Assembly: GCA_012514745.1 (NCBI GenBank)
Contig: JAAYZR010000002.1
Span: 104,962-168,961 of the forward strand
Length of the DNA stretch: 64,000 bases
Reading direction: 5' to 3'
Source of the DNA: Candidatus Undivivens industriae
Lineage (GTDB): Bacteria > Omnitrophota > Gorgyraeia > Gygaellales > Profunditerraquicolaceae
This document shows, piece by piece, positions 10,799 to 61,571 of the stretch. Under the pieces are notes generated by a model. It saw only the letters and a program-made list of their open reading frames with translations, was not told the DNA's origin and made no database searches. A program made the translations under genes and the position numbers. How positions within the stretch are numbered: position 1 is the first letter of the stretch; each line of letters starts with the position of its first letter.

Positions 10799-11005
10799 CG
10801 CGCGGCGCATGATCCCGAATGCCGGCCGGATATTATTGACCGGTTTCAGATTCTGACTTGCAGTCCTGAATGTTCCTTCAACAGGATCGGACAGCCGAGC
10901 AGGCAAGGATTACCCCGGGGTTCTGTTTCGAATAGTCAGACAGCTCACTACAAGGGTTTGTCGAAAAATTGCCCGGGGAGCTTTATAACCTGCGGGGACA
11001 AAACA

Positions 11006-27534: not shown

Positions 27535-27861
27535 ATGGTAAACCAGGACGAAAGAAGATTTTTTGTCAGGATTCCGGTCAGTTTTCCATTGAAATTCTCT
27601 TTGACCGGTTCCTCCTTGCAGTGTATAGGGACCGTCAGCGACGTGAGCATCCGCGGGCTGGGGATATTTACAGAGGCTTCGTTGTCGCGGGGCGCTTCTC
27701 TGGATTGCTGGCTTCTTCTTTCCGACAAAAACCGGCCTTTCTACACGAAAGGCGAAGTGATTTGGACTATACAGGAAGGGGAGAAAACCCTTCGCGCCGG
27801 TATCAGCCTTTCCAATCCGGTCACAACAGGCGTGGCGCACGTTCTTAGACAAAACAGTTAA
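27535..27861 (+). CDS. single-domain PilZ protein (c-di-GMP receptor family)
   Basis: RxxxR (RRFFVRIP) and D-x-S-x-x-G (DVSIRGLG) motifs. Start trimmed to ATG 27535. Confidence 0.65.
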   Translation: MVNQDERRFFVRIPVSFPLKFSLTGSSLQCIGTVSDVSIRGLGIFTEASLSRGASLDCWLLLSDKNRPFYTKGEVIWTIQEGEKTLRAGISLSNPVTTGVAHVLRQNS

Positions 27862-46192: not shown

Positions 46193-46859
46193 AGAATACG
46201 CCGGATTGAAGGAATTCGCGTTGTTCTGGGGAGCCGATCTTTTCGGGGTGGCGGATATCTCCGGCAGCGAGGAAATATACGGAGAGTCCCCGTCGATAAA
46301 GGTAAGGCTGCCGAGGGCGGTATGCCTGGGAGCGGCGCTGTCTTCGGCCGTGCTGGAAGAAATCGAGCAGCATCCCACAAAACTGTATTTTCATCATTAC
46401 CGCAGCGTGAATATCCTGCTTGATCAGCTTTCGCTGCGTATCTGTCGTTACCTGGAAAACAAAGGTCGGCGGGCCGTGCCGATCCCCGCTTCGCAGATCG
46501 TGGATTGGGAAAAACAGCGCGGCCATCTCTCGCATAAAAGCGTTGCCTCCGCCGCCGGTTTGGGATGGATAGGAAGGAATAACCTGCTGGTAACTAAGAA
46601 ATTCGGCAGCCGGGTCAGGCTCGCCACCGTGCTTACCGATATGCTTCTTCCGGCGGACGGGCCAGGCGGGGAGGGGTGCGGTTCCTGCCGTGCCTGCGTG
46701 AGTCTTTGTCCGGCCGGAGCGATAAAGGGATCGCCGGCTGAATTCGACCACATCAAATGCTTCGAGAAACTCAAGGAATTCCAGAAGGCCAGGCTGGCGG
46801 ATCAGTATATTTGCGGTATCTGCGTCAGGCATTGCAAAGGTGCCGGGGAACGGGATTGA
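46185..46859 (+). CDS. short QueG-like (epoxyqueuosine reductase family) 4Fe-4S protein
   Basis: [13 protein letters not shown] and [12 protein letters not shown] resemble QueG, but the protein is about 225 aa. There is no in-frame ATG; the start is TTG at 46185 or 46134. Confidence 0.5.
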
Positions 46860-46884
46860 CCTGACAAATGGCGGATGTTATAAT
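46856..46884 (+). promoter_or_regulatory. near-consensus sigma70 promoter TTGACC-17-TATAAT upstream of nadE
   Basis: TTGACC at 46856-46861, TATAAT at 46879-46884. Confidence 0.55.
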
Positions 46885-46900
46885 ATACAAATTATAAAAG

Positions 46901-47680
46901 ATGAAAGCGGAGATCGAAGGCTGGATACGGGAACGCATTAAAAGCGCGGGGGCTAAAGGGGCGCTGGTAGGTTTAAGCGGGGGAATAGACTCTTCCGTGG
47001 CTGCCGCCCTGTTATGTTCCTCCCTCGGCAGAAAACGGGTTTTGGCTTTGATACTGCCCGCGCACAGTTCGCGTCAGGACGCGGAGGACGCGGAGTTGAT
47101 AGTTTCCAGATTCCGCCTGCGGTCGTTGACGGTGGATATCTCCAAGATATACGACCTTTTGCTGAAAAAAATGCTTCTTCCTCCGGGGTTAAACGCCGCG
47201 AAGCAGCGCGAGAAGACCGCCGGAGCCAATCTGAAATCGAGGCTCAGGATGTCCGTCTTTTATTATTACGCGAACCGTCTGAATTATCTGGTGTGCGGGA
47301 CCGGCAACCGTTCCGAGATAATGACGGGTTATTTCACCAAATACGGGGACGGCGCCGCCGATATCCTTCCTCTCGGCGGGCTTCTGAAGCGTCAGGTGAG
47401 ATCGCTGGCGGAGGAACTGGGGGTGCCACGGCGTATAATAGATAAGCCCCCCAGCGCCGGGCTCTGGCCGGGCCAGACGGATGAGGCGGAAATGGGAGTG
47501 ACTTACGGAGAGATCGACGCAGTCCTCTCGGGTACCGCCGGAAGGAATAAAACGTTTTGCGGCGGGAAGACGGCATCGCGTATTCATAAAATGCGGTCGC
47601 TGTCCGAACATAAAAGAATGCCGGCCGCGGTTTTTATCCCTTCCGGGGGCGGCAAGCCGAACGCCGGGGAGCTTCATTAG
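46901..47680 (+). CDS. nadE: NH3-dependent NAD+ synthetase
   Basis: PP-loop GLSGGIDSS; single-domain form of about 260 aa. Confidence 0.8.
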   Translation: MKAEIEGWIRERIKSAGAKGALVGLSGGIDSSVAAALLCSSLGRKRVLALILPAHSSRQDAEDAELIVSRFRLRSLTVDISKIYDLLLKKMLLPPGLNAAKQREKTAGANLKSRLRMSVFYYYANRLNYLVCGTGNRSEIMTGYFTKYGDGAADILPLGGLLKRQVRSLAEELGVPRRIIDKPPSAGLWPGQTDEAEMGVTYGEIDAVLSGTAGRNKTFCGGKTASRIHKMRSLSEHKRMPAAVFIPSGGGKPNAGELH

Positions 47681-47738
47681 AGGTATAAGCCGGGGCAGAT
47701 TGCTGCCGGCGGACAACCATTACAAAGAAGAGGTGCGC

Positions 47739-48224
47739 ATGGACGAGATACTTGAAATACTCGAAAAAGACGGCAGGGCTACGGTGGAAGATATCTCCAG
47801 GATGCTGCGCAGAAAACCGGGAGCCGTGCGCAAGGCCATAAAAAAATACGAAAAAGACGGGATAATCCTGAGTTACAAGGCCGTGATCAACAAGGAAATG
47901 GTCAAGTATAAGAATTCCGGGGTCCGCGCCTTGATAGAGGTCAACATCACCCCTCAGAAAGACCTGGGATTCGACAAGATAGCCGAGAGGATCTATTCTT
48001 TCCCGGAGGTCGGCAGCTGTTATCTCATTTCCGGCACCTACGACCTCCTGCTGATAATCGAGGGAAGGGACCTGCACACGGTCTCCAAGTTTGTCTCGGA
48101 AAAACTCGCGCCGATGGAAAATATCCGAGGCGTGGTAACTCATTTTCTGCTGAAGAAATATAAAGAGGACGGGATGGTGTTGAAGCAGGTGCAGGAGAAC
48201 GAGCGTATCCCCATATCGTATTAA
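47739..48224 (+). CDS. Lrp/AsnC-family transcriptional regulator
   Basis: N-terminal HTH plus RAM domain; 161 aa from ATG 47739. Confidence 0.8.
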   Translation: MDEILEILEKDGRATVEDISRMLRRKPGAVRKAIKKYEKDGIILSYKAVINKEMVKYKNSGVRALIEVNITPQKDLGFDKIAERIYSFPEVGSCYLISGTYDLLLIIEGRDLHTVSKFVSEKLAPMENIRGVVTHFLLKKYKEDGMVLKQVQENERIPISY

Positions 48225-48251: not shown

Positions 48252-49430
48252 GTGTCTGTTAAAAACGGCGGAAGCCGGGGATTATCGAAAAAAGTTGAAG
48301 AAATGCAGCCTTCCGGGATCAGGGTCTTTTTCGACCTTGTGCTGGGAATGAAAGACGTTATTTCCCTCGGTGTGGGCGAACCGGATTTCGTCACGCCCTG
48401 GCAGATAAGGGAAGCCGGGATATACTCTCTGGAAAACGGTTCCACTTCCTATACCTCGAATAAAGGGCTGGTTAAACTGCGCATGGGGCTGCAGCATTAT
48501 TTGAAAAAGAGATACGGTTTGTCCTATGCGCATGAAGACCGGATACTCGTCACGGTAGGCGTGAGCCAGGGCGTGGACCTGGCTTTGCGCGCGCTGATCA
48601 ATCCCGGCGACAGGATTATCATCCCGGCGCCGGCATACGTCTGTTACGCCCCTCTTGCCGAACTGGCGGGGGGGAAGGCGGTTTGTATCGATACCTCGCG
48701 CGACGGTTTCAAGCTCACCCCCCGCGCGCTGGAATCCGCTCTGCGCGTCCCGGCCAAGGCGTTACTGTTGAATTACCCCTGTAATCCCACCGGGATTTCC
48801 TATACTGCGCGGGAGCTCAGGGAATTGAACCGGATACTGCTCAAACACGGAGTTATGTGCGTCAGCGACGAAATATACGCGGACCTCACTTACGATTTCG
48901 AACATACTTCATTCGCGTCCCTGCCGGGGGCCAAAGAGAACACGCTTTTGTTGAACGGGTTCTCCAAAAGTTACGCCATGACCGGCTGGCGCGTGGGATA
49001 CGCCTGCGGGCCTGCAAAGATTATCGCGGCAATGACAAAGATACATCAATATATGATGCTTTGCGCTCCGATCATGTCGCAGATGGCGGCCTGCGAGGCT
49101 TTGCTGACCGGACGCGACTCGATGGAGGAAATGAAGCGGGAATACCGCCGCAGGCGTTCTTTCATCGTGGACGGGTTGAACCGTATCGGCCTCGATTGCG
49201 CCCTGCCGCAGGGGGCTTTTTATGCCTTTGCTTCGGTGAAGAAGAGCGGATTGTCATCCATAGAATTCTGCCGGCGGCTGCTCAAAGAAGAGAAGGTCGC
49301 CGTCGTTCCGGGCACCGCTTTCGGGGATAACGGCGAGGGATACGTTCGTATCTCTTACGCCGCGGCGATGGACAAGATAAAAGAAGCGCTGGGCAGGATG
49401 CAGAGGTTCCTTGAAAGAAACAGGAAATGA
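48252..49430 (+). CDS. PLP-dependent aminotransferase, class I (aspartate aminotransferase-like)
   Basis: GTG start with AAGGAG RBS. SKSYAMTGWRVGY PLP-lysine motif. Confidence 0.8.
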   Translation: MSVKNGGSRGLSKKVEEMQPSGIRVFFDLVLGMKDVISLGVGEPDFVTPWQIREAGIYSLENGSTSYTSNKGLVKLRMGLQHYLKKRYGLSYAHEDRILVTVGVSQGVDLALRALINPGDRIIIPAPAYVCYAPLAELAGGKAVCIDTSRDGFKLTPRALESALRVPAKALLLNYPCNPTGISYTARELRELNRILLKHGVMCVSDEIYADLTYDFEHTSFASLPGAKENTLLLNGFSKSYAMTGWRVGYACGPAKIIAAMTKIHQYMMLCAPIMSQMAACEALLTGRDSMEEMKREYRRRRSFIVDGLNRIGLDCALPQGAFYAFASVKKSGLSSIEFCRRLLKEEKVAVVPGTAFGDNGEGYVRISYAAAMDKIKEALGRMQRFLERNRK

Positions 49431-49452
49431 AGCGGACGGGTGGAGCGCGGTT

Positions 49453-50784
49453 ATGGCGAAGATGACCGGAAAAGAAATAATGAAGCTGGTAAAGGATAAA
49501 AACATCGGTTTTATCCGGCTCTGTTTTACCGACGTCCTGGGGTTCCTCAAGGGTTTTGCCATAACGGCGGACGAACTGGAGCGCGTGCTGGAAGAAGGCA
49601 TGGGGTTTGACGGCTCCTCGGTGGAAGGGTTCGCCAGGGTGGAAGAGTCGGATATGGTCGCAAGGCCCGACCCGGACACGTTCTCCGTTACCCCCTGGAG
49701 CGCCCAGGATAGACACCTTACCGCCGGTATGTTCTGTGATATATACGAGCCCGGCGGCAGGCCGTTTGAAGGAGACCCGCGTTACATCCTCAAACGTAAC
49801 CTGGCTGCGGCGAAAGAGATGGGCTATACCTATTACGTCGGACCGGAGCTCGAGTATTTTTATTTCAGCAATTCCTCCGTCCCGCAGCCGCTCGATAACG
49901 GCGGTTATTTCGACCTTGTTCCTTTGGACGTCGCCCAGGACCTGCGCAGGGATACCATCTCGGCGCTGCAATCTATGGGCATCGCCGTCGAATACAGCCA
50001 TCATGAAGTGGCGCCCAGCCAGCACGAGATCGACCTGCGTTACGGGGATGCGTTGCGTATGGCAGATAACGTAATGACTTACCGTCTGGTGGTGAAAGAG
50101 ATCGCGCGCAAGCATGGCGTATACGCAACTTTTATGCCCAAGCCGATCTACGGGATCAACGGCTCCGGCATGCACGTCCACCAGTCGCTGTTTAAGGGCG
50201 GCAAGAACGCCTTTTTTGATCCGTCCGACAAATACCATCTTTCGCCCGCCGGCAAAGCGTATACCGCCGGGTTGCTAAAGCATTCCAGGGAGATCACTTC
50301 CATAACCAGCCAGTGGGTCAATTCATACAAAAGGTTGATTCCGGGATATGAGGCACCCGTGTATATATGCTGGGCGCAGATGAACCGCTCCGCGCTTATA
50401 CGCGTGCCTATGTATAAACCCGGGAAAGAGAAATCCACGCGCATAGAATACCGTTCGCCGGATCCGGCCTGCAATCCATACCTGGCTTTCTCGGTTATGC
50501 TCGCCTGCGGCCTTGAAGGAATGAAACGCGGATATAAATTGGCTCCGCCGGCAAACGACAATATTTACCGTATGGATGAGGAGGAAAGGAACAAACAGGG
50601 TATAAGTTCTCTTCCCGACGACCTGCTGGAGGCCATACAGGTCACCGAGAAGAGCAAAATAGTCAAGGAAGCCTTGGGGGCCACTCTCTTCGAGTTCTTC
50701 ATCCGCAACAAGAAAATGGAGTGGGATGAATATAAGGCTCAAGTCACCCGGTATGAGATAAACAAGTATCTGCCGATACTTTAA
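49453..50784 (+). CDS. glnA: glutamine synthetase type I
   Basis: GS-I length of 443 aa; catalytic-region motifs including FGQHLH-like and NPYL. Confidence 0.85.
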   Translation: MAKMTGKEIMKLVKDKNIGFIRLCFTDVLGFLKGFAITADELERVLEEGMGFDGSSVEGFARVEESDMVARPDPDTFSVTPWSAQDRHLTAGMFCDIYEPGGRPFEGDPRYILKRNLAAAKEMGYTYYVGPELEYFYFSNSSVPQPLDNGGYFDLVPLDVAQDLRRDTISALQSMGIAVEYSHHEVAPSQHEIDLRYGDALRMADNVMTYRLVVKEIARKHGVYATFMPKPIYGINGSGMHVHQSLFKGGKNAFFDPSDKYHLSPAGKAYTAGLLKHSREITSITSQWVNSYKRLIPGYEAPVYICWAQMNRSALIRVPMYKPGKEKSTRIEYRSPDPACNPYLAFSVMLACGLEGMKRGYKLAPPANDNIYRMDEEERNKQGISSLPDDLLEAIQVTEKSKIVKEALGATLFEFFIRNKKMEWDEYKAQVTRYEINKYLPIL

Positions 50785-50835: not shown

Positions 50836-51576
50836 ATGACAGAGAAAAAAAGAGAACGTTCGTTCGCAGGCAAGAAAGATAACTACCAGATTTATCTGAA
50901 ACAGATAAACGCTCTGGCCCGGGTGGCCAGATTGATAAGTTCAGGGATGTATCTCGATGAGTTGCTTAAACTTATAGTTCACGTCACGGCGGAGGTTATG
51001 CAGTCCAAGATATGTTCTTTGATGCTGCTGGACCCGGAGACCAAGGAACTGGTGATCAAATCTACCCAGTCGGTCTCTGAGAGATACAATAATAAGCCTA
51101 ACATCAAGCTTGGCGAGGGCATCGCCGGAATGGTGGCCAAAGACAACAAACTGCTCTGCTCCGGGGACGTCAGGAAGGACAGGAGGTATGTCAACCGTGA
51201 GATAGCCAGGAGCGAGGCAATAGTGTCTCTGGCCAGCGTGCCCCTGGCCATTAAAGGCAAAGTGATAGGGGTGCTTAATTGTTATACTTCCGAGGAGCAT
51301 GAGTTCAGCCCCGCCGAATTGGACATTCTTACTACCGTCGCCGCGCAGGCCGCCGCCGCCATCGAGAACGCCGAACTGGACCTGCGGGCGCGCAGTGCCG
51401 AAGAAGCCCTGCAGACCCGCAAGCTCATAGAGCGCGCCAAAGAGATATTATCGCAGGACGCCAATATGCCGCCTTCTGAAGCGTTCAGGTTGATCCAAAA
51501 ACAGAGTATGGACAAACGCAAGACTATGAAGGAGATAGCCGAGGCGATAATACTCGCCAAGGATATCCGTTCCTAA
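50836..51576 (+). CDS. GAF-ANTAR one-component RNA-binding antiterminator-type regulator
   Basis: N-terminal GAF domain (residues about 40-190) and a C-terminal ANTAR motif LQTRKLIERAKEILSQDANMPPSEAFRLIQKQSMDKRKTMKEIAEAII. Confidence 0.75.
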   Translation: MTEKKRERSFAGKKDNYQIYLKQINALARVARLISSGMYLDELLKLIVHVTAEVMQSKICSLMLLDPETKELVIKSTQSVSERYNNKPNIKLGEGIAGMVAKDNKLLCSGDVRKDRRYVNREIARSEAIVSLASVPLAIKGKVIGVLNCYTSEEHEFSPAELDILTTVAAQAAAAIENAELDLRARSAEEALQTRKLIERAKEILSQDANMPPSEAFRLIQKQSMDKRKTMKEIAEAIILAKDIRS

Positions 51577-51592
51577 AGAGGCGTAATTTCCC

Positions 51593-51621
51593 TTGACCGC
51601 CGGCCGGTTAAGGCATATAAT
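51593..51621 (+). promoter_or_regulatory. near-consensus sigma70 promoter TTGACC-17-TATAAT upstream of eno
   Basis: TTGACC at 51593-51598, TATAAT at 51616-51621. Confidence 0.55.
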
Positions 51622-53427: not shown

Positions 53428-53850
53428 ATGTTAGTTATCATTAGATTAACGCTTAACGTGATTTCCCTTGTCCTGGCGGCGCAGCTCTGCCCGGGCATAA
53501 GCATTACGAACTGGCAGGCCGCCCTTGCGGCCGCGCTGGTACTCGGTCTTTTCAACCTCTTTCTTAAGCCGGCGCTGGTTTTTCTTACCCTCCCGATTAA
53601 CCTGCTCAGTTTTGGAGTGTTCATTTTCTTTATAAACGGACTGCTTTTTTACGCCGCCTCGCGAGTGGTAACCGGTTTCCATGTGGACGGTTACGGCAGC
53701 GCCCTTCTGGGGGCTTTCTTTTACAGCGCGATAAACCTGCTGCTTGGGATTCTTTTCAACAGCAGGGGCGGGAATAACGGCGGAAGCCCGCGCAAAGGGC
53801 CCGGCCGCAGGAGCGACGTGATAGATGTGGAAGCTAAAATAGAATCTTGA
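53428..53850 (+). CDS. small 4-TM membrane protein (DUF360 / holin-IV-like)
   Basis: Four hydrophobic helices and a Gly/Arg-rich tail. Confidence 0.45.
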   Translation: MLVIIRLTLNVISLVLAAQLCPGISITNWQAALAAALVLGLFNLFLKPALVFLTLPINLLSFGVFIFFINGLLFYAASRVVTGFHVDGYGSALLGAFFYSAINLLLGILFNSRGGNNGGSPRKGPGRRSDVIDVEAKIES

Positions 53851-53875
53851 CAGAGAACGGCGAGAATGCTATAAT
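53847..53875 (+). promoter_or_regulatory. perfect consensus sigma70 promoter TTGACA-17-TATAAT upstream of the Gln-dependent nadE
   Basis: TTGACA at 53847-53852, TATAAT at 53870-53875. It is followed by two leader hairpins (53884-53899 and 53904-53940) ending in a T-run. Confidence 0.55.
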
Positions 53876-54029
53876 TTAAACACATTACGAAGGCGTAATA
53901 GACAAAGGCGTTTGCTGAATCACCGCAGATGCCTTTTTTGTTTTCCCGGATAACGTGGTCCTGAAAGCCGCAACACAGCTTTCAGGATTTTTTTTACCCG
54001 CTGAGAAGCGGTTTAAGGATGGGTTCATC

Positions 54030-55622
54030 GTGGAAAAGATCGCTTTGGCACAGATCAACTGCACGGTAGGGGGTGTGCGGGACAATGCGCAGAAGATCAT
54101 CGAATTCAGCCGGCTGGCGGCCGCCGAAGGCAATAAAATGGCCGTTTTCCCGGAGTTGGCCGTCACCGGTTATCCTCCGGAAGACTTGCTGCTAAAACCC
54201 TCTTTTATCGCCGACAACCTGGAGCAATCCAGGAGAATAGTCGCTTCCGCCGGCGATATGATTGTCATTTTCGGGTTCGTTGATACCGACGGAGAAAGGT
54301 TATATAACGCCGCCGCCGCGGCCGTCCGCGGTAAACTCGCCGGCGTGTACCGTAAAGTCCTGCTGCCTAACTACGGCGTGTTCGACGAAAAACGTTATTT
54401 CGCTCCGGGTAAAGAGGCCCCGGTTTTTAGGATCGACGGTCTATCTATGGGGATCAGTGTCTGCGAGGATATTTGGCACGCGTCCGGCCCGGTATACGAA
54501 CAGGCCAGGACCGGGGCGGAGGTCCTGGTCAATATCAGCGCTTCTCCCTATCAAATCGGCAAGATCGCAGAACGCGGGGATACCCTTTGCCGCTGCGCCG
54601 CGGAGTGCGGAGTGCCGATAGTTTATGTCAATCTTGTGGGAGGGCAGGATGATCTGGTGTTCGACGGAGGGAGCATGTTCATATCGTCTGCCGGCGGGGT
54701 GCTATCGCGCGCCGCTGTCTTCAAGGAAGAGCTCTTTACCCTGGAGCGGGCTGTCTGCCGCCGGCCGGAATATTCTTTGGAGCAGGAAGAAGAGGTTTAT
54801 TCCGCTCTGACTCTCGGTTTGAAAGATTATTTTCGCAAGAACGGTTTTAAAAAGGCGGTGCTGGGCCTTAGCGGCGGGATAGATTCGGCACTCACCGCTG
54901 CACTGGCCGCCGACGCGCTCGGCAGCGAAAACGTGACCGGCGTCTTCCTACCGGCCAGGTATACTTCCAAACAGTCGCATGACGACGCCCTAAAGCTTGC
55001 CCGCGGGCTGGGCATCGGGTTCAAGCGTATATCCATCGAGCCGATTTTTCGGCTTTACCTGTTGAGCCTGGAGGAACAGTTCAGCGGACTGCCGAGGGAT
55101 TGCACGGAAGAAAATCTGCAAGCGCGTATACGAGGCGCGCTGCTTATGGCTCTGTCCAATAAATTCGGGTGGCTGGTGCTCGCCACGGGAAACAAGTCGG
55201 AGATGAGTGTGGGGTATTCCACCATCTACGGTGATCTCGCCGGAGGGTTCGCGGTTTTAAAGGACGTGCCGAAGACTCTTATTTACAGGCTGGTCGCGTA
55301 CCGCAACCGCCGTTCCCCGGTCATACCGGAAAGCGTTATATCACGTGAACCCACTGCTGAACTTAGCCCGGGGCAGAAGGACAGCGATACCCTTCCGCCT
55401 TATGATGTGCTGGACCCCATATTGAAGCTGTATATTGAAGAAGATGCTTCGGCGCAGGATATCATCGCCGCCGGCTTCCAGGAAAAAGACGTGCGCAGGG
55501 TGGTTTCGCTGGTAGACGGCAGCGAATATAAGCGTCGGCAGTCCCCTCCCGGGATAAAGATCACATCCAGGGCGTTCGGTAAGGACCGCAGGATGCCGAT
55601 CACCAACGGACAAAAACCATGA
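54030..55622 (+). CDS. nadE: glutamine-dependent NAD+ synthetase (nitrilase domain plus NAD synthetase domain)
   Basis: N-terminal CN-hydrolase domain (KIALAQIN...) and a C-terminal PP-loop GLSGGIDSA. Start set at GTG 54030 with AAGGATGGG RBS. Confidence 0.75.
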   Translation: MEKIALAQINCTVGGVRDNAQKIIEFSRLAAAEGNKMAVFPELAVTGYPPEDLLLKPSFIADNLEQSRRIVASAGDMIVIFGFVDTDGERLYNAAAAAVRGKLAGVYRKVLLPNYGVFDEKRYFAPGKEAPVFRIDGLSMGISVCEDIWHASGPVYEQARTGAEVLVNISASPYQIGKIAERGDTLCRCAAECGVPIVYVNLVGGQDDLVFDGGSMFISSAGGVLSRAAVFKEELFTLERAVCRRPEYSLEQEEEVYSALTLGLKDYFRKNGFKKAVLGLSGGIDSALTAALAADALGSENVTGVFLPARYTSKQSHDDALKLARGLGIGFKRISIEPIFRLYLLSLEEQFSGLPRDCTEENLQARIRGALLMALSNKFGWLVLATGNKSEMSVGYSTIYGDLAGGFAVLKDVPKTLIYRLVAYRNRRSPVIPESVISREPTAELSPGQKDSDTLPPYDVLDPILKLYIEEDASAQDIIAAGFQEKDVRRVVSLVDGSEYKRRQSPPGIKITSRAFGKDRRMPITNGQKP

Positions 55623-56131
55623 GTTACCCCGACCTGCTTAAGAGGCTGTCCCCGCGGCTGAAGGGAATAACGTATAAACTTAACGGGAAATTCACCTTTT
55701 TCAACGAAGAAGATCTTTTCCAGGAGGCGGCGGTCAGGCTTTGGCAGGAATTCGAGCTCGGGCGGCTTGCCGGCAAGACAGACAGTTACATACTTCAGGG
55801 ATGTTATTTTCATCTCAAGAATTACATAAGAAAAAAATACGACAAAAAGAATACACTGAGCCTGGAGGCGTTGCTGACCGAAGAGCCCGGGGCCGAGGAC
55901 AGGCTGTCGTGCCTTTCTTCGCCTGAGCCGTTCGAATCGCTGCACGCCGGAGTCGTGGAGAAGGAGATGCGTTCTGCGTGCCGCGATAAAAGAGAACACG
56001 AAATATTCCATTTGAGCCTGCGGGGTTTCACGGTTAGGGAGATCGCGGCCGAACTCGGCGTCTCGCATGTGCTGGTGGTAAGACTGCGAAAAAGGATGAG
56101 GGCAAAACTTTTATCTCTGGCCGCGGAGTGA
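55619..56131 (+). CDS. sigma-70-family (ECF-like) RNA polymerase sigma factor
   Basis: Region-2-like segment EDLFQEAAVRLWQ and a region-4 HTH LRGFTVREIAAELGVSHVLVVRL. Confidence 0.6.
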   Translation: MSYPDLLKRLSPRLKGITYKLNGKFTFFNEEDLFQEAAVRLWQEFELGRLAGKTDSYILQGCYFHLKNYIRKKYDKKNTLSLEALLTEEPGAEDRLSCLSSPEPFESLHAGVVEKEMRSACRDKREHEIFHLSLRGFTVREIAAELGVSHVLVVRLRKRMRAKLLSLAAE

Positions 56132-56270
56132 AGAGGTGTTACCAGAAACCGGATTTCTTTACTTGTAATAGTGAAGCTCTCCGGGTTCTAACCCGGTTTC
56201 ACCTTAGCTTATGCACAAGGATGTGCGTTAAATAGAAACAACGGCCTGTTATAAAGGCTTGAGCTTAAAT

Positions 56271-56328
56271 AAGACAGAGGCGTCTTGCTTCCGGGATCCA
56301 ACGATCGGAGGCAAGACGTTTTTTATTG
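56271..56328 (+). terminator. leader attenuator in front of glnB-amt-glnK: small AGAGGC-loop hairpin overlapping a 13-bp-stem intrinsic terminator plus T6
   Basis: AAGAC-AGAGGC-GTCTT at 56271-56286. The terminator is CGTCTTGCTTCCG..CGGAGGCAAGACG followed by TTTTTT, spanning 56281-56324. Confidence 0.55.
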
Positions 56329-56358: not shown

Positions 56359-56697
56359 ATGAAAAAAATAGAAGCGGTGATAAGATCGGAAAAAGTCGGA
56401 GACGTGCGCAAGGCGCTGGACAAGACGTGCTTCTCCGGATTGATGCTTACCCAGGTGGACGGGCACGGTAAGCAGAAGGGTACGATGCAGGAATGGCGCG
56501 GAGACATTTATCGTGTGGGGATACTCCCCAAGACCAAGGTGGAGGTCGTGGTGGAAGATAAGGATCTTGATACCGTTGTCCGCGTAATCATGGACGCCGC
56601 CAGGACGGGAGAAATCGGAGACGGTAAGATATTCGTTTATCCTGTCGAAGAGGTTTACCGCATCAGGACGGCGGAAAAGGGAAGCGCGGCATTGTAA
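56359..56697 (+). CDS. glnB: nitrogen regulatory protein P-II
   Basis: 112 aa (MKKIEAVIR..., T-loop region, GDGKIFV). GGGAGG RBS. Confidence 0.85.
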   Translation: MKKIEAVIRSEKVGDVRKALDKTCFSGLMLTQVDGHGKQKGTMQEWRGDIYRVGILPKTKVEVVVEDKDLDTVVRVIMDAARTGEIGDGKIFVYPVEEVYRIRTAEKGSAAL

Positions 56698-56814
56698 TCC
56701 ATTTAATCAAACCGCCCCCTCGCCCAGAAATCCCCGGGCGCTTGTCCAAGGCATTGCGACGAGAGGATTGTCCAACGGGCAGACCGGGGAGTTTCACTAT
56801 TGAAAGGAGACGAG

Positions 56815-58041
56815 ATGAATTCCGGTGATACGGCATGGGTTTTGATTTCTTCGGCTCTTGTAATGTTGATGACGCCCGGCCTGGCCTTCTTTTACGGGGG
56901 TATGGTTAGGAAGAAGAATGTCCTTAGCATCCTGATGCAGTGTTTTATAGTCCTTTGTCTTTTGAGCGTTCAATGGGTGCTTTACGGTTACAGTATTTCC
57001 TTCGCACCCGGGGACGGCTTCTGGGGCGGGTTCAAATGGGCGGGGCTTGCCGGCGTCGGGCTGGAGCCTTACGCGGATTATTCGGCCACTATCCCGCACC
57101 AGGCTTTTATGATTTTCCAGGCTATGTTTGCCATAATTACTCCCGCTTTGATACTGGGAGCGTTCGCGGAAAGGATGAAGTTTTCCGCATTTTTGGCTTT
57201 CATATTGCTCTGGGTGACTTTCGTATACGGGCCGGTCTGCCATTGGGTATGGGGAATGGGCGGCTGGTTGAGAAAACTCGGAGCCCTTGATTTTGCAGGG
57301 GGCACAGTTGTGCATATCAACGCCGGTATCGCGGCTTTAGCAACGGCTATTGCTATCGGCAGGCGTAAGAATTTGGAGAAGAACGTTCCGACCCCGCATA
57401 ATATGCCGTTTGTAGTGTTGGGTACCGCTTTATTATGGTTCGGCTGGTTCGGGTTCAACGCCGGCAGCGCCCTGGCGGCCAACGGCCTCGCGGTAAACGC
57501 GTTCGTGGTCACCAACACCGCTGCCGCTGCCGCGGGTTTGAGCTGGGCATTTATAGAATGGATTAAGAACGGTAAACCTACCGTTCTCGGCGTGGCCAGC
57601 GGAGCGGTGGCGGGACTGGTCGCTATCACCCCGGCGGCGGGTTTCGTAAGCGTGATCCCTGCCATCTTCATCGGTCTGTTGGTAAGCCTGTTCTGTTTTG
57701 TTTTTGTGAGCGAGGTCAAAAGGAAGTTCGCTTATGACGATTCTCTCGATGCTTTCGGCGTGCATTGCGTGGGTGGAGTCTGGGGGGCCCTTGCGACCGG
57801 ATTGTTCGCTTCTAAAGCGGTCAATCCTGCCGGGGCGGACGGCCTGTTTTTCGGCAATCCGCAGCAATTCCTGGTGCAGATCGCGGCAGTCGCGGTAACG
57901 CTGGTCTATTCTTTCGCGGTCAGCATGGTTATCTACAAGATAGTAGATTCCGTGATGGGAGTACGCGTGGGAGAGAAAGAAGAATCCATTGGCCTTGATC
58001 TTACCCAGCACCACGAAAGAGCGTATACAATATTGGAATAA
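56815..58041 (+). CDS. amt: ammonium transporter
   Basis: Amt signature DTAWVLISSALVMLMTPGLAFFYGG. AAAGGAGA RBS 5 nt upstream of ATG 56815. Confidence 0.85.
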   Translation: MNSGDTAWVLISSALVMLMTPGLAFFYGGMVRKKNVLSILMQCFIVLCLLSVQWVLYGYSISFAPGDGFWGGFKWAGLAGVGLEPYADYSATIPHQAFMIFQAMFAIITPALILGAFAERMKFSAFLAFILLWVTFVYGPVCHWVWGMGGWLRKLGALDFAGGTVVHINAGIAALATAIAIGRRKNLEKNVPTPHNMPFVVLGTALLWFGWFGFNAGSALAANGLAVNAFVVTNTAAAAAGLSWAFIEWIKNGKPTVLGVASGAVAGLVAITPAAGFVSVIPAIFIGLLVSLFCFVFVSEVKRKFAYDDSLDAFGVHCVGGVWGALATGLFASKAVNPAGADGLFFGNPQQFLVQIAAVAVTLVYSFAVSMVIYKIVDSVMGVRVGEKEESIGLDLTQHHERAYTILE

Positions 58042-58068: not shown

Positions 58069-58410
58069 ATGAAACTGGTAATAGCCATAATCCAGCCGGA
58101 CAAGCTGGAGGAAATCAAAGAGGAGCTTTACAGGTCGGAGATCAATCTTATTACCGTCAGCGAAGTGCTCGGCCACGGCCGCCAGAAAGGCGTAACGGAG
58201 TTCTACCGCGGGGCAAAGGAGACCGGGAATCTGTTGAGAAAGATCCGTATTGAAATAGCCGTGAACGACACTTTCCTGGAACCGGCAATAAAAGCGATAG
58301 TGGCCGGGGCCAAGACCGGCGAGACCGGAGACGGTAAGATATTCGTGCTGGATATGAAGGAGTGCGTGCGTATACGCACGGAAGAACGCGGTTCCACGGC
58401 GATAGGGTAG
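58069..58410 (+). CDS. glnK: nitrogen regulatory protein P-II (GlnK-type, amt-linked)
   Basis: 113 aa; MKLVIAIIQP..., GDGKIFV. Confidence 0.85.
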   Translation: MKLVIAIIQPDKLEEIKEELYRSEINLITVSEVLGHGRQKGVTEFYRGAKETGNLLRKIRIEIAVNDTFLEPAIKAIVAGAKTGETGDGKIFVLDMKECVRIRTEERGSTAIG

Positions 58411-58558: not shown

Positions 58559-58587
58559 TTGACAGCGGGGGTGCTGGTATATATAAT
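58559..58587 (+). promoter_or_regulatory. perfect consensus sigma70 promoter TTGACA-17-TATAAT upstream of the glnN leader
   Basis: TTGACA at 58559-58564, TATAAT at 58582-58587. The glnN ATG lies about 275 nt downstream. Confidence 0.55.
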
Positions 58588-58715
58588 ATATAAAACAGCA
58601 GGCGATATCCGGTCCGGCGGCAGGAAGAATAATAAGAAAAAGCTGTTACCAAACCCGGGCAATCTTTACTTGTATAATTAAGGCACATCGTTGTGCCGTA
58701 AAATTAAGCGAAATA

Positions 58716-58772
58716 TGAACAGAGGCGTTCAGGATAATCGCCGCAGGCGGTTTGAATGGACGCCTCTTTTTA
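58716..58772 (+). terminator. leader attenuator in front of glnN: AGAGGC-loop hairpin overlapping a terminator (GAGGCGT..ACGCCTC plus TTTTTA)
   Basis: TGAAC-AGAGGC-GTTCA at 58716-58731. The terminator stem arms are at 58723-58729 and 58760-58766, followed by a T-run. Confidence 0.5.
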
Positions 58773-58867: not shown

Positions 58868-61063
58868 ATGAGTATAAGGCAGAAAGTTTTATTTAAGATC
58901 AATAACGTGCCTTTGGAGAAAGCCGGTTCTCTTGAGAAGGTATCTTCTTATTTCGGTGAAAACACTTTCAGCCTGGATGCGATGAAGAAGTATATCTCCG
59001 GAGCCACATTCGAAGCCTTCAAAACCTGGATGAACGAGGGGAAGACCATCAGCAAAGAGCAGGCGGACGAGATTGCCAACGCCATGAAAGATTGGGCCAT
59101 TTCCAAGGGCGCCACATATTATACGCATTGGTTCCAGCCTATGACCGGACTTACCGCGGAGAAGCACGACAGTTTTATTTCTTTTACCGGACCCGGGAAG
59201 GTGAGCGAGACATTCTCCGGAAGCAAACTCATACAGGGAGAGCCGGACGCTTCGAGTTTCCCTTCAGGAGGCATACGCGCCACCTTCGAGGCGCGCGGTT
59301 ACACCGCCTGGGACCCATCCAGCCCGGCCTTTATCATTGAGAGCGCTCTAGGCAAGACCCTTTGCATCCCGACCATATTTATATCTTATCACGGGGAAGC
59401 CCTGGACAAGAAACTCCCGCTTTTGCGCTCCGATGAAGCTTTAAGCAAAGCGGCGGTCGGACTGCTGAAACTGTTCGGGCACAAGGAAACGCAGAAAGTA
59501 CTTTCCACCTGCGGCCCGGAGCAGGAGTATTTTCTGATAGACAAGAATTATTATAATCTCCGGCAGGACCTTATAATGGCCGGCAGGACATTGATCGGGG
59601 CCCCGTCTCCGAAGGGCCAGCAGCTGGAGGATCAGTATTTCGGGACCATCAAGGAACGCGTGGTCAATTTTATGTTTGAGGTGGCGCAGGAGGCGTATAA
59701 ACTTGGGATACCGGTAGTGACGCGCCACAACGAGGTCGCTCCGCATCAATATGAATTCGCCCCCATCTTCGAAGAATCGAACCTCGCCGCCGACCACAAC
59801 CAGCTGCTTATGGAGCTGATGAAAAAGGTGGCGTTGCGGCACGATATGATCTGCCTTCTGCACGAGAAACCCTTTGCCGGGATAAACGGCAGCGGTAAGC
59901 ATCTCAACTGGTCGCTGGCTGACGACAAGGGAAACAACCTGCTTAATCCCGGTCAGACACCCGAGGATAATCTGCAGTTCCTGGCCGTGCTGGCCGCTGT
60001 GTTGAGGGCGGTTTATCTGCATTCCGACTTGCTGCGAGCGTCGGTAGCCATGGCCGGCAACGAGCACAGGCTGGGCGCCAATGAGGCGCCTCCGGCGATC
60101 ATCAGCGTCTTTCTGGGCGAGCAGTTGACCTCCATACTCGATATGATAGAGAAAGGCGTGAAATCAAAAGTCTCCAAAAGCGACATCATCGATCTGGGGA
60201 TCGGACGTTTGCCGAAATTCAACAAGGATAACACGGACAGGAACCGTACGTCGCCTTTTGCCTTTACCGGAGCCAAGTTTGAATTCCGCGCCGTGGGATC
60301 TTCGCAAAACATCTCCACGCCCATCGCGGTCATAAACACCATAATAGCCGAAAGCCTCGATTACGTGTCCGGAAAGATCTCCGCGGCGTCGGGCGGAGGC
60401 AAGGATTTCAATACCGCCGTTCTACAGGTGATCTCGGAGATAGTGAAAGAGACGAAGAGTATCCGTTTCGAGGGCAACAATTACGCCCCGGAGTGGGTCA
60501 AGGAGGCCAAGAAGCGCGGCCTTCCCAACGTGTCCAGCACTTATGAAGCGTTGGAGGCGTTGACTAAAGAGAAGAACATCCGCCTGTTCGAGAAATACGG
60601 CGTCTTCTCGGAAGAAGAACTGGTGGCGCGTTATCATATCTGGATCCATACGTATAATCTGACCCTTGAGATAGAGGCGAACACCCTTAAAGAAATGGTG
60701 AACGCCTCGGTGGTGCCGGCAGGTTATAAGTATGAGAAACTGCTCGCGCGCACGCTGCACGAGTTGGTAAGCCTTGTCAAGACGGCCGCTTTGAAACTTG
60801 ACCCGGCAGCCCTGAAGGACAAGAAAGCCCACCTTGCCGACATCGTCAGCAAAATATACTACGTCAGGCGCAATACCCTGGAGATGGATAAACTACTGGG
60901 GAAAGCGGCCAAAGTCGGCGATGCAGAGCGCGCCGAGCTTTATTTCAGGGAACTCAAACCATTGATGGAGCACATCCGCAGGCATGTGGATGAACTGGAG
61001 TGCGTGGTTTCAGACGACTCCTGGGACCTGCCTAAATACCGGGAGATGCTGTTCATAAAATAA
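58868..61063 (+). CDS. glnN: glutamine synthetase type III
   Basis: 730 aa, the typical GS-III length; conserved central catalytic region. AAGGAGG RBS. Confidence 0.85.
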   Translation: MSIRQKVLFKINNVPLEKAGSLEKVSSYFGENTFSLDAMKKYISGATFEAFKTWMNEGKTISKEQADEIANAMKDWAISKGATYYTHWFQPMTGLTAEKHDSFISFTGPGKVSETFSGSKLIQGEPDASSFPSGGIRATFEARGYTAWDPSSPAFIIESALGKTLCIPTIFISYHGEALDKKLPLLRSDEALSKAAVGLLKLFGHKETQKVLSTCGPEQEYFLIDKNYYNLRQDLIMAGRTLIGAPSPKGQQLEDQYFGTIKERVVNFMFEVAQEAYKLGIPVVTRHNEVAPHQYEFAPIFEESNLAADHNQLLMELMKKVALRHDMICLLHEKPFAGINGSGKHLNWSLADDKGNNLLNPGQTPEDNLQFLAVLAAVLRAVYLHSDLLRASVAMAGNEHRLGANEAPPAIISVFLGEQLTSILDMIEKGVKSKVSKSDIIDLGIGRLPKFNKDNTDRNRTSPFAFTGAKFEFRAVGSSQNISTPIAVINTIIAESLDYVSGKISAASGGGKDFNTAVLQVISEIVKETKSIRFEGNNYAPEWVKEAKKRGLPNVSSTYEALEALTKEKNIRLFEKYGVFSEEELVARYHIWIHTYNLTLEIEANTLKEMVNASVVPAGYKYEKLLARTLHELVSLVKTAALKLDPAALKDKKAHLADIVSKIYYVRRNTLEMDKLLGKAAKVGDAERAELYFRELKPLMEHIRRHVDELECVVSDDSWDLPKYREMLFIK

Positions 61064-61108: not shown

Positions 61109-61184
61109 GTCTCTCCCGGAACCGGACTTGCTCCCCGGATTTTTAAAATACAAATGCCAAACTATTAGGCATTGCAAAACGCCG

Positions 61185-61571
61185 ATGGTCGAAATGATTG
61201 CATTATTTATCTCCGGTAATGAAGAGAACGTGCTTGCTGCGCTCTCCGACGCTTTGGGCCGGACCGGCAATACCGCCGTCAGCGTGGTCAAACGGGAGGT
61301 AATATCCGGAATCCTGCAAAAAGGCGATATGACCGCTCTGGTTTCCCTGGAAGAGAAAATAAGGAAATTATCCAGGCAGGTTTGCATGGAGAACAAGGGC
61401 AGGGCTTACAAGATCTTTCTCGATACGGTGGAGAAACCGTTGTTCGAAGAGGTGCTCATCCGCACCGACGGCAACCAGATGAAAGCGGCGAGGATATTGG
61501 GGATAAACAGGAACACGATGCGTTCAAGGATAAAGCGGCTCGGACTTACTCCCGGAGTCTATAGGCAATGA
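61185..61571 (+). CDS. small protein with a C-terminal Fis-type HTH (NtrC-C-terminal-like DNA-binding domain)
   Basis: C-terminus NQMKAARILGINRNTMRSRIKRLGL. The alternative TTG start is at 61128. Its stop overlaps the gltB ATG (ATGA). Confidence 0.45.
   Translation: MVEMIALFISGNEENVLAALSDALGRTGNTAVSVVKREVISGILQKGDMTALVSLEEKIRKLSRQVCMENKGRAYKIFLDTVEKPLFEEVLIRTDGNQMKAARILGINRNTMRSRIKRLGLTPGVYRQ

Follow-up and report, generated by a model that had tools for sequence, protein, structure and literature searches.

A GAF-ANTAR protein encoded in the genome of Candidatus Undivivens industriae (Omnitrophota) probably acts as a one-component antiterminator of a nitrogen-assimilation regulon, a reading to which we give a probability of about 0.7. 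The gene is located at positions 50836..51576 (+ strand) of a stretch of 64,000 nucleotides (nt) from contig JAAYZR010000002.1, which was analysed as a whole and is referred to here as the window. It starts with ATG and encodes a regulator of 246 amino acids. Three leaders of the ANTAR type were found in the window, located ahead of nadE2 and the gene of an extracytoplasmic function (ECF) sigma factor, ahead of glnB-amt-glnK and ahead of glnN. We consider it quite likely that the regulator binds RNA and is the partner of these leaders. Open reading frames (ORFs) and domains were analysed across the window, and the loci of relatives are the 80 best-matching Omnitrophota loci. The window and these loci together formed the search space of 1.16 Mb, on both strands, for the leader covariance model R1 and for the promoter box described below.

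Both domains of the regulator were recovered at full length by Pfam profiles, far beyond chance. The GAF_2 profile matched residues 40-177 (50953..51366, + strand) with 76.4 bits against a cut-off of 28.6, covering profile positions 4-136 of 136, and the ANTAR profile matched residues 188-239 (51397..51552, + strand) with 66.1 bits against a cut-off of 27.3, covering positions 3-54 of 54. An earlier note made from the sequence had named this fusion, which the profile search confirmed, and had seen no sensor kinase nearby; none of the neighbouring ORFs scanned (38.5-63.4 kb) was found to carry a histidine-kinase domain. Its placement of the gene directly after an aminotransferase-glnA pair is correct for the window, where the gap from glnA is 51 nt and the regulator is the last gene of a nadE-lrp-aminotransferase-glnA operon, but does not hold as a conserved trait. 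Among the 61 loci having at least 3.2 kb 5' of the regulator, searched by tblastn with the window proteins, lrp and the aminotransferase gene (aat) lie directly 5' of it in 60 whereas glnA lies in between in 21, and glnA was thus ruled out as a conserved partner.

The regulator gave no Pfam match to a Response_reg or NIT domain, its N-terminal domain being the GAF, and no ORF with a receiver (REC) domain was found among the neighbouring ORFs scanned. The protein is therefore a member of the ANTAR family (PF03861) outside the REC-ANTAR, NIT-ANTAR and AmiR subclasses, because the corresponding sensor domains are absent. No second ANTAR ORF was detected when the six frames of the window were scanned with the profile hidden Markov model (HMM) and phmmer. 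A protein 100% identical to the regulator, from a metagenome-assembled genome (MAG), bears the label 'GAF and ANTAR domain-containing protein'. The AlphaFold model (mean predicted local distance difference test score, pLDDT, 83.8) consists of a GAF core, a long helix and a three-helix ANTAR bundle. The helix runs without interruption from the GAF into the ANTAR domain over residues 159-209 (51310..51462, + strand), with pLDDT of about 76-92 along it, and is presumed to be a dimerisation coiled coil, in keeping with the coiled-coil dimers that other ANTAR proteins form.

The ANTAR domain could be aligned without gaps to Rv1626 (1s8n, E 2e-10), NasR and EutV, where NasR (4akk, E 2.8e-6) matches the regulator over the ANTAR part alone (residues 177-242). 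The 11 RNA contacts of EutV (PMC8934654) were mapped onto the regulator with a chain offset of +2. Five of them are identical, namely R142/R195, K143/K196, K149/K202, M172/M225 and R175/R228 (EutV/regulator), and three are conservative or common to other ANTAR proteins, namely K147/R200, Y164/F217 (Y in most homologues) and N173/D226. The other three differ, with E160 replaced by P213, R168 by Q221 (as in Rv1626) and R177 by T230. The matching contact positions were observed to be mostly invariant across the family alignment.

In all three leaders, RNA folding leaves the first hairpin (P1) intact, whereas a strong terminator takes up the second (P2) in its 5' arm. The glnN leader (58682..58731, + strand; R1 33.2 bits, E 6e-5) has P1 GGCAC-ATCGTT-GTGCC and P2 TGAAC-AGAGGC-GTTCA, and the terminator that absorbs P2 (58721..58772, followed by T5) was scored by RNAfold at -40.2 kcal/mol with z -4.7. 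The glnB leader (56213..56287, + strand; R1 27.2 bits) has P1 GCAC-AAGGAT-GTGC (56213-26) and P2 TAAGAC-AGAGGC-GTCTTG (56270-87), and its terminator (56276..56324, followed by T6) likewise absorbs P2 at -44.5 kcal/mol with z -5.0. An additional hairpin in this leader, AACA-ACGGCC-TGTT (56237-56250, + strand), which also has adenine at loop position 1 (A1) and guanine at position 4 (G4), is located between P1 and P2. The distance between P1 and P2 in the glnB leader is 44 nt, which is unusually long for an ANTAR substrate.

The leader ahead of nadE2 and the ECF sigma gene (53884..53913, + strand; R1 26.1 bits, E 0.003) follows a perfect sigma-70 promoter, TTGACA-17-TATAAT, at 53847..53875 (+ strand). 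Its hairpins are P1 ATTAC-GAAGGC-GTAAT and P2 AGAC-AAAGGC-GTTT, and the terminator T1 (53904..53944, + strand; -20.8 kcal/mol, z -4.1) uses the loop and 3' arm of P2 as its 5' arm and ends in a T-run. A second attenuator occupies 53948..53995 (+ strand), where a third hairpin, P3 GGAU-AACGUG-GUCC (53948-53961), overlaps the terminator T2 (TCCTGAAAGC..GCTTTCAGGA, to 53987), which is followed by T8. The 3' arm of P3 enters T2, and the nadE2 leader is thus a tandem attenuator. The equivalent of P3, GGAC-UAAGRC-GUCC, is kept in relatives together with T2, for example at 10880-10925 of locus L041. The hexaloop of this single hairpin follows the pattern U/A-A-A/C-G-.., and T2 comes just ahead of the start codon.

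The earlier note had described terminator-overlapping hairpins ahead of glnB-amt-glnK and glnN as candidate targets of the regulator. Both leaders were found to be real: a scan for two A..G.. hexaloop stem-loops followed by a T-run returned 3 pairs, all in the glnB and glnN leaders, compared with 0.2 expected from 30 dinucleotide shuffles. Its leader set was incomplete, as the tandem attenuator ahead of nadE2 and the sigma gene had been missed. The view of the leaders as ANTAR targets was upheld in the relatives. Twenty-two seed leaders were aligned (A2) and used for the covariance model R1, which comprises P1 and P2, and matches were kept at E<=1. This gave 81 matches, 59 of which are not seeds; every one is on the gene strand (0 on the other), no match (0/81) falls within a gene that tblastn with the window proteins had identified, and 64 are followed by a T-run. 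Over the 73 distinct matches, G4 is present in 100% of the loops and A1 in 76% of P1 and 89% of P2. The A-U and C-G pairs that close the loops show essentially no variation, and compensatory changes were observed in 7 of the 9 stem pairs, with percentages of pairing that are partly circular for the reason given below. In the literature, ANTAR substrates are defined by dual hairpins whose hexaloops have A1 and G4 (PMC3369931, PMC8934654), and the window leaders, judged by their sequence, are canonical ANTAR targets.

The co-occurrence of gene and leader motif, which the earlier note had suggested as a check, was borne out in the form of genomic linkage, with 77 R1 matches in 460 kb downstream of the regulator versus 1 in 575 kb upstream. 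The first match typically begins 40-80 nt past the stop codon of the regulator. The genes following the matches were identified as the ECF sigma gene (21), glnN (8), hth8 (7), a PII gene (6), nadE2 (5), amt (2) and a second glnA (1), and the remaining matches precede a porin-like gene or a locus edge.

The matches fall into two tiers which differ in their promoters. Tier 1 leaders (n=36), located right after the regulator and before the sigma gene or nadE2, have a sigma-70-like promoter in 32 cases and never the box GTTACC-N15-TTACTTGTA. Tier 2 leaders (n=45), which precede amt, PII, glnN, hth8, the second glnA or the porin-like gene, have the box in 35 cases and a sigma-70-like promoter in 5. 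In the window the box is found at 56138..56167 (+ strand) for the glnB-amt-glnK unit and at 58645..58674 (+ strand) for the glnN unit. The search space contains 59 copies, which all share the strand of the genes, and in 57 of them the spacer measures exactly 15 nt. Of the 24 boxes that lack an R1 match, most still precede sub-threshold hexaloop-like leaders. We set the box by eye against the consensuses TGTNA-N7-TNACA, TGGCAC-N5-TTGC and TTGACA-17-TATAAT and rejected it as a TnrA/GlnR-type, sigma-54 or standard sigma-70 site, as its sequence and spacing do not fit. Its asymmetric halves and fixed 15-nt spacer favour an alternative sigma factor, for which they would be the -35 and -10 elements. 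The candidate in the window is the ECF-type sigma factor of 170 amino acids encoded at 55619..56131 (+ strand), which contains a helix-turn-helix (HTH) and sigma-70 regions 2 and 4, and matches the NCBIfam model TIGR02937 (sigma70-ECF) with 52.1 bits against a cut-off of 42.9, over positions 5-163 of 165. Its gene overlaps nadE2 by 4 nt and is co-transcribed with it. We give even odds to the box being the promoter of this sigma factor. A perfect TTGACA-17-TATAAT promoter was also seen at 58559-58587, about 60 nt 5' of the glnN box, and glnN may have two promoters feeding one attenuator.

These elements can be arranged into the following scheme. The regulator would be produced from a leader-less sigma-70 operon along with Lrp, the aminotransferase and type I glutamine synthetase (GS-I), and would dimerise through the long GAF-ANTAR helix. 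With the GAF in a 'nitrogen-poor' state, the ANTAR domains would bind the AC-[A..G..]-GU hexaloop hairpins P1 and P2 of the nascent leader RNA, and P2, held folded, would keep its 3' arm from the terminator and allow RNA polymerase to read through. The units opened in the window would be nadE2 with the ECF sigma gene (by way of the tandem attenuator), glnB-amt-glnK and glnN. The sigma factor would in turn drive the box promoters of the glnB-amt-glnK and glnN units, and since second-tier units would need both the sigma factor and antitermination, the arrangement would form a coherent feed-forward loop. The signal is proposed to be the balance of 2-oxoglutarate (2-OG) and glutamine, read directly by a GAF of the PtsP/NifA type. 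Extended to the whole phylum, a circuit in which a GAF-ANTAR protein reading 2-OG/glutamine unlocks an ECF sigma factor, and the sigma-driven amt, PII, type III glutamine synthetase (GS-III), porin-like and Fis-like units are ANTAR-gated again as an AND gate, is put forward as a tentative proposal which we would not yet favour.

Several observations weigh against the antiterminator reading and have to be set beside the evidence above. Because the R1 seeds had been selected as hairpins and A3 is an alignment fitted to R1, the pairing percentages are partly circular; the results on strand, position and gene class of the R1 matches are unaffected by this. The linker between P1 and P2 varies from 1 to 47 nt among the R1 matches, and antitermination by EutV was lost when its linker was lengthened by 20 nt (PMC8934654). 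In the folding prediction, the loop of free P1 closes to a tetraloop. In the protein, the position of Glu160 of EutV is taken by Pro or Ser (P213 here), with a nearly invariant Glu at 215, and R168 of EutV is replaced by Gln; the E160A mutation of EutV led to a 60-fold loss of affinity (PMC8934654). The ligand assignment is drawn solely from the subfamily resemblance of the GAF, and no characterised GAF-ANTAR protein was found in the literature. Furthermore, the leaders adjoin the regulator in only 38 of 77 loci, the nitrogen island being elsewhere not adjacent, and with 64 kb of the genome visible and paralogues present in some relatives, another ANTAR protein could exist.

Such a protein might be the one that serves the leaders, for example a REC-ANTAR like GnfR, with the GAF-ANTAR protein having other targets or a translational role only. 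REC-ANTAR is the commonest ANTAR architecture, GnfR governs the leaders of glnK, amtB and nif genes in Geobacter (PMC2995071), and actinobacterial ANTAR proteins are described as acting on translation (bioRxiv 10.1101/660928). We nevertheless judge this explanation improbable, as leaders that begin 40-80 nt past the regulator stop in many distant relatives and the downstream bias of the matches tie them to this gene, no other ANTAR ORF occurs in the window and no REC or kinase ORF nearby, and P2 overlaps terminators with T-runs rather than ribosome-binding sites. It can also be asked whether the leaders need a protein at all, or are plain terminators, metabolite-sensing RNAs or sigma-dependent units whose hexaloop likeness is coincidental. 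Nitrogen control could come from the box promoter by itself, and no Rfam family covers the leaders at the gathering score or at E<=5, which leaves the leader class without confirmation from that side. The same search, however, returned no glutamine riboswitch or other RNA, and the invariance of G4 and the high frequency of A1 in both loops, the constancy of the AC/GU closing pairs next to covarying outer stem pairs, the strand bias of 81:0 and an architecture equal to that of the published ANTAR substrate (PMC3369931, PMC8934654) make a protein-free role extremely improbable.

As to the signal of the antiterminator, the GAF half has its closest relatives in sequence and structure among the GAF domains of PtsP (EI-Ntr) and NifA, which report nitrogen/carbon status via glutamine and/or 2-OG. 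Its best partial NCBIfam matches are PtsP (1.5e-14) and NifA (TIGR01817, 1.7e-13), and the best sequence matches in the PDB are the PtsP/EI-Ntr structures 3ci6 (E 4.6e-14) and 3trc, together with 3e0y, Nlh1 of Aquifex (4g3k) and NifA (9qq6). Foldseek with the AlphaFold model also placed the PtsP GAFs 3ci6 and 3trc on top, with TM-scores normalised to the target of 0.80-0.84, and found no solved structure that covers a full GAF-ANTAR protein. No ligand-bound structure of a PtsP or NifA GAF was found for a comparison of the pocket. Published work reports sensing of the glutamine/2-OG ratio by the PtsP/EI-Ntr GAF and binding of 2-OG by the NifA GAF (PMC5024086, PMC12998190). By this likeness, which strengthens a suggestion of the earlier note, the GAF of the regulator might read 2-OG/glutamine directly, an assignment that we regard as tentative. 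PtsP and NifA differ from the regulator in their outputs, which are a phosphotransferase of the phosphotransferase system (PTS) and an AAA+ sigma-54 activator respectively, where the regulator has an RNA-binding domain. A variant that retains antitermination of the leaders has the GAF docking a PII protein (GlnB/GlnK) that carries the 2-OG/ATP signal. This would follow the NifA GAF of A. brasilense, whose interaction with GlnB is documented (PMC3854208); the GAF of the regulator is related to NifA-type GAFs, and the two PII genes in the regulon would allow feedback. We consider docking unlikely because the PtsP GAFs, which are the top relatives of this GAF, are reported to sense Gln/2-OG directly, and because the regulator's own operon contains no PII gene.

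Antitermination through dual-hexaloop leaders is established for EutV, NasR and AmiR, and GAF-ANTAR is among the most abundant ANTAR architectures. A 2012 study predicted ANTAR-type leaders ahead of PII, amt, glutamine synthetase and nif genes in many phyla (PMC3369931). The lack of a characterised GAF-ANTAR example was stated in 2012 (PMC3369931) and in 2020 (PMC7496416), and the table of a 2025 review contains none (PMC12591593). The ANTAR mechanism and its link to nitrogen are thus already known, whereas no GAF-ANTAR protein is known to have been characterised, later literature searches included, and no regulon is known that places an ANTAR protein above a dedicated ECF sigma factor.

EutV of Enterococcus faecalis (PMC3369931, PMC8934654) resembles the regulator in having a three-helix ANTAR domain after a long coiled-coil helix, several leaders per regulon, and leaders with two A1/G4 hexaloop hairpins where P2 and an intrinsic terminator are mutually exclusive. 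It differs in having a phosphorylated receiver and eut targets, whereas the regulator has a GAF, no kinase and nitrogen-assimilation targets, in its E160, whose equivalent is not conserved in the regulator, and in its linker, the length of which is far more variable here. GnfK/GnfR of Geobacter sulfurreducens (PMC2995071) also provides ANTAR antitermination of glnK/amtB-type genes, which belong to a two-tier cascade and depend in addition on a dedicated factor for transcription initiation. GnfR, however, is a REC-ANTAR protein with a kinase, and the tiers are reversed, since the sigma-54 activator GnfM switches on gnfK/gnfR while in the present locus it is apparently the ANTAR protein that activates the sigma factor.

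NasR of Klebsiella oxytoca is likewise a one-component protein with its sensor joined by a helix to the ANTAR domain, and acts on the two-hairpin leader of a nitrogen-assimilation operon; its sensor is an all-helical NIT domain for nitrate/nitrite and it has a single target operon, whereas the sensor of the regulator is a GAF. Rv1626 (PdtaR) of Mycobacterium tuberculosis is the best-scoring solved ANTAR protein and shares with the regulator Q at the position of EutV R168 and D at that of N173. PdtaR is, in contrast, a REC-ANTAR protein partnered with the GAF/PAS kinase PdtaS, and is reported to act on translation, with lipid/redox targets.

If the proposed circuit is true, it would stand in for NtrBC/sigma-54, GlnR/TnrA or NtcA without a described counterpart, and the abundant GAF-ANTAR class would gain its first ligand and its first regulon. 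The circuit would also give a first view of ammonium-assimilation control in an uncultured, widespread phylum and a compact metabolite-to-RNA switch for synthetic biology. The locus offers a conserved test case comprising a 246-amino-acid protein, three leader RNAs of 30-75 nt, the candidate ligands 2-OG, glutamine and PII, and a sharply defined promoter for the predicted sigma tier, all of them accessible to in vitro tests that need no culture of the organism.

The operon that ends with the regulator has a sigma-70-like promoter (TTGACC-17-TATAAT, 11/12 positions) at 46856..46884 and contains, all on the + strand, an NH3-type nadE (nadE1, 46901-47680), an Lrp/AsnC regulator gene (lrp, 47700-48224), the class I/II aminotransferase gene aat (48252-49430) and the GS-I gene glnA (49411-50784; TIGR00653, 525 bits). 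No R1 match was found 5' of nadE1, lrp, aat or glnA in the window. Between the regulator and nadE2, in + strand order, are enolase, a DivIC-like gene, a transfer RNA gene and a gene for a small membrane protein. The sequence AAAGAGGCGT at 51575-51584, on the stop codon of the regulator, resembles the P2 loop and was set aside as chance, being without hairpin or terminator and followed by the sigma-70 promoter of enolase (51593-51621). A near-match, ACAGAGGCTT, at 27670 was also rejected, as it has a different context, lacks the dual-hairpin architecture and is not an R1 match.

The gene nadE2 (54030..55622, + strand) encodes a glutamine-dependent NAD synthetase with CN_hydrolase and NAD_synthase domains. 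Its start is probably GTG 54030 rather than the GTG 53955 of the ORF list because the latter sits within hairpin P3. The two NAD synthetases of the window are thus divided between the leader-less regulator operon, which has the NH3-dependent enzyme, and the tandem ANTAR attenuator, which precedes the glutamine-dependent one; this pairing suggests a switch of amide donor that depends on nitrogen status. Beyond the sigma gene, the + strand carries the PII gene glnB (56359-56697; Pfam P-II), the ammonium transporter gene amt (56800-58041; Ammonium_transp), the PII gene glnK (58069-58410; P-II), the GS-III gene glnN (58868..61063; GSIII_N, 252 bits) and, 3' of glnN, the gene of a Fis/NtrC-type HTH_8 protein (hth8, 61128..61571). 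In relatives hth8 has its own box and ANTAR leader (L039 19801, L054 18352, L072 9516), and in the window the gap before it is 64 nt with no R1 match; hth8 may be a further regulator of the nitrogen island.

In many relatives the genes 3' of the regulator are an ECF sigma/HTH gene, a porin-like gene of the Gcw_chp family, amt, PII, glnN and hth8. In many of them the Gcw_chp gene, placed between the sigma gene and amt, opens the second tier; the window lacks it. Its product is a secreted porin-like protein of 268 amino acids in locus L041 (11773-12579), and it also occurs in L006, L009, L022, L027, L054, L064 and L080.

Relatives of the regulator itself number 3975 at E<=1e-10, the best 120 of which, from Omnitrophota-type MAGs, have 70-100% identity and only generic names. 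When one genome per species was scanned, a relative turned up in at least 580 genomes, and the best 80 loci were essentially all from Omnitrophota, some being mislabelled as Planctomycetales. Some genomes have two GAF-ANTAR paralogues (L031 768-2468; L007 1558-2022; L018 35-5486), and the second copy in L031 has an ANTAR-type leader ahead of it (R1 match 1646-1714), which hints at autoregulation or a cascade of regulators. In a deep HMMER search of 1.84 billion representatives, the top 150 were nearly all giant multi-GAF proteins that score by repetition, with one relative of equal length (P0176, 58% identity). The GAF half matched proteins of 1,000-3,800 amino acids that bear 6-19 tandem GAF repeats (P0121-P0270), and the same list includes GAF-GAF-ANTAR proteins of about 400 amino acids (P0172, P0217, P0233, P0241 and P0242).

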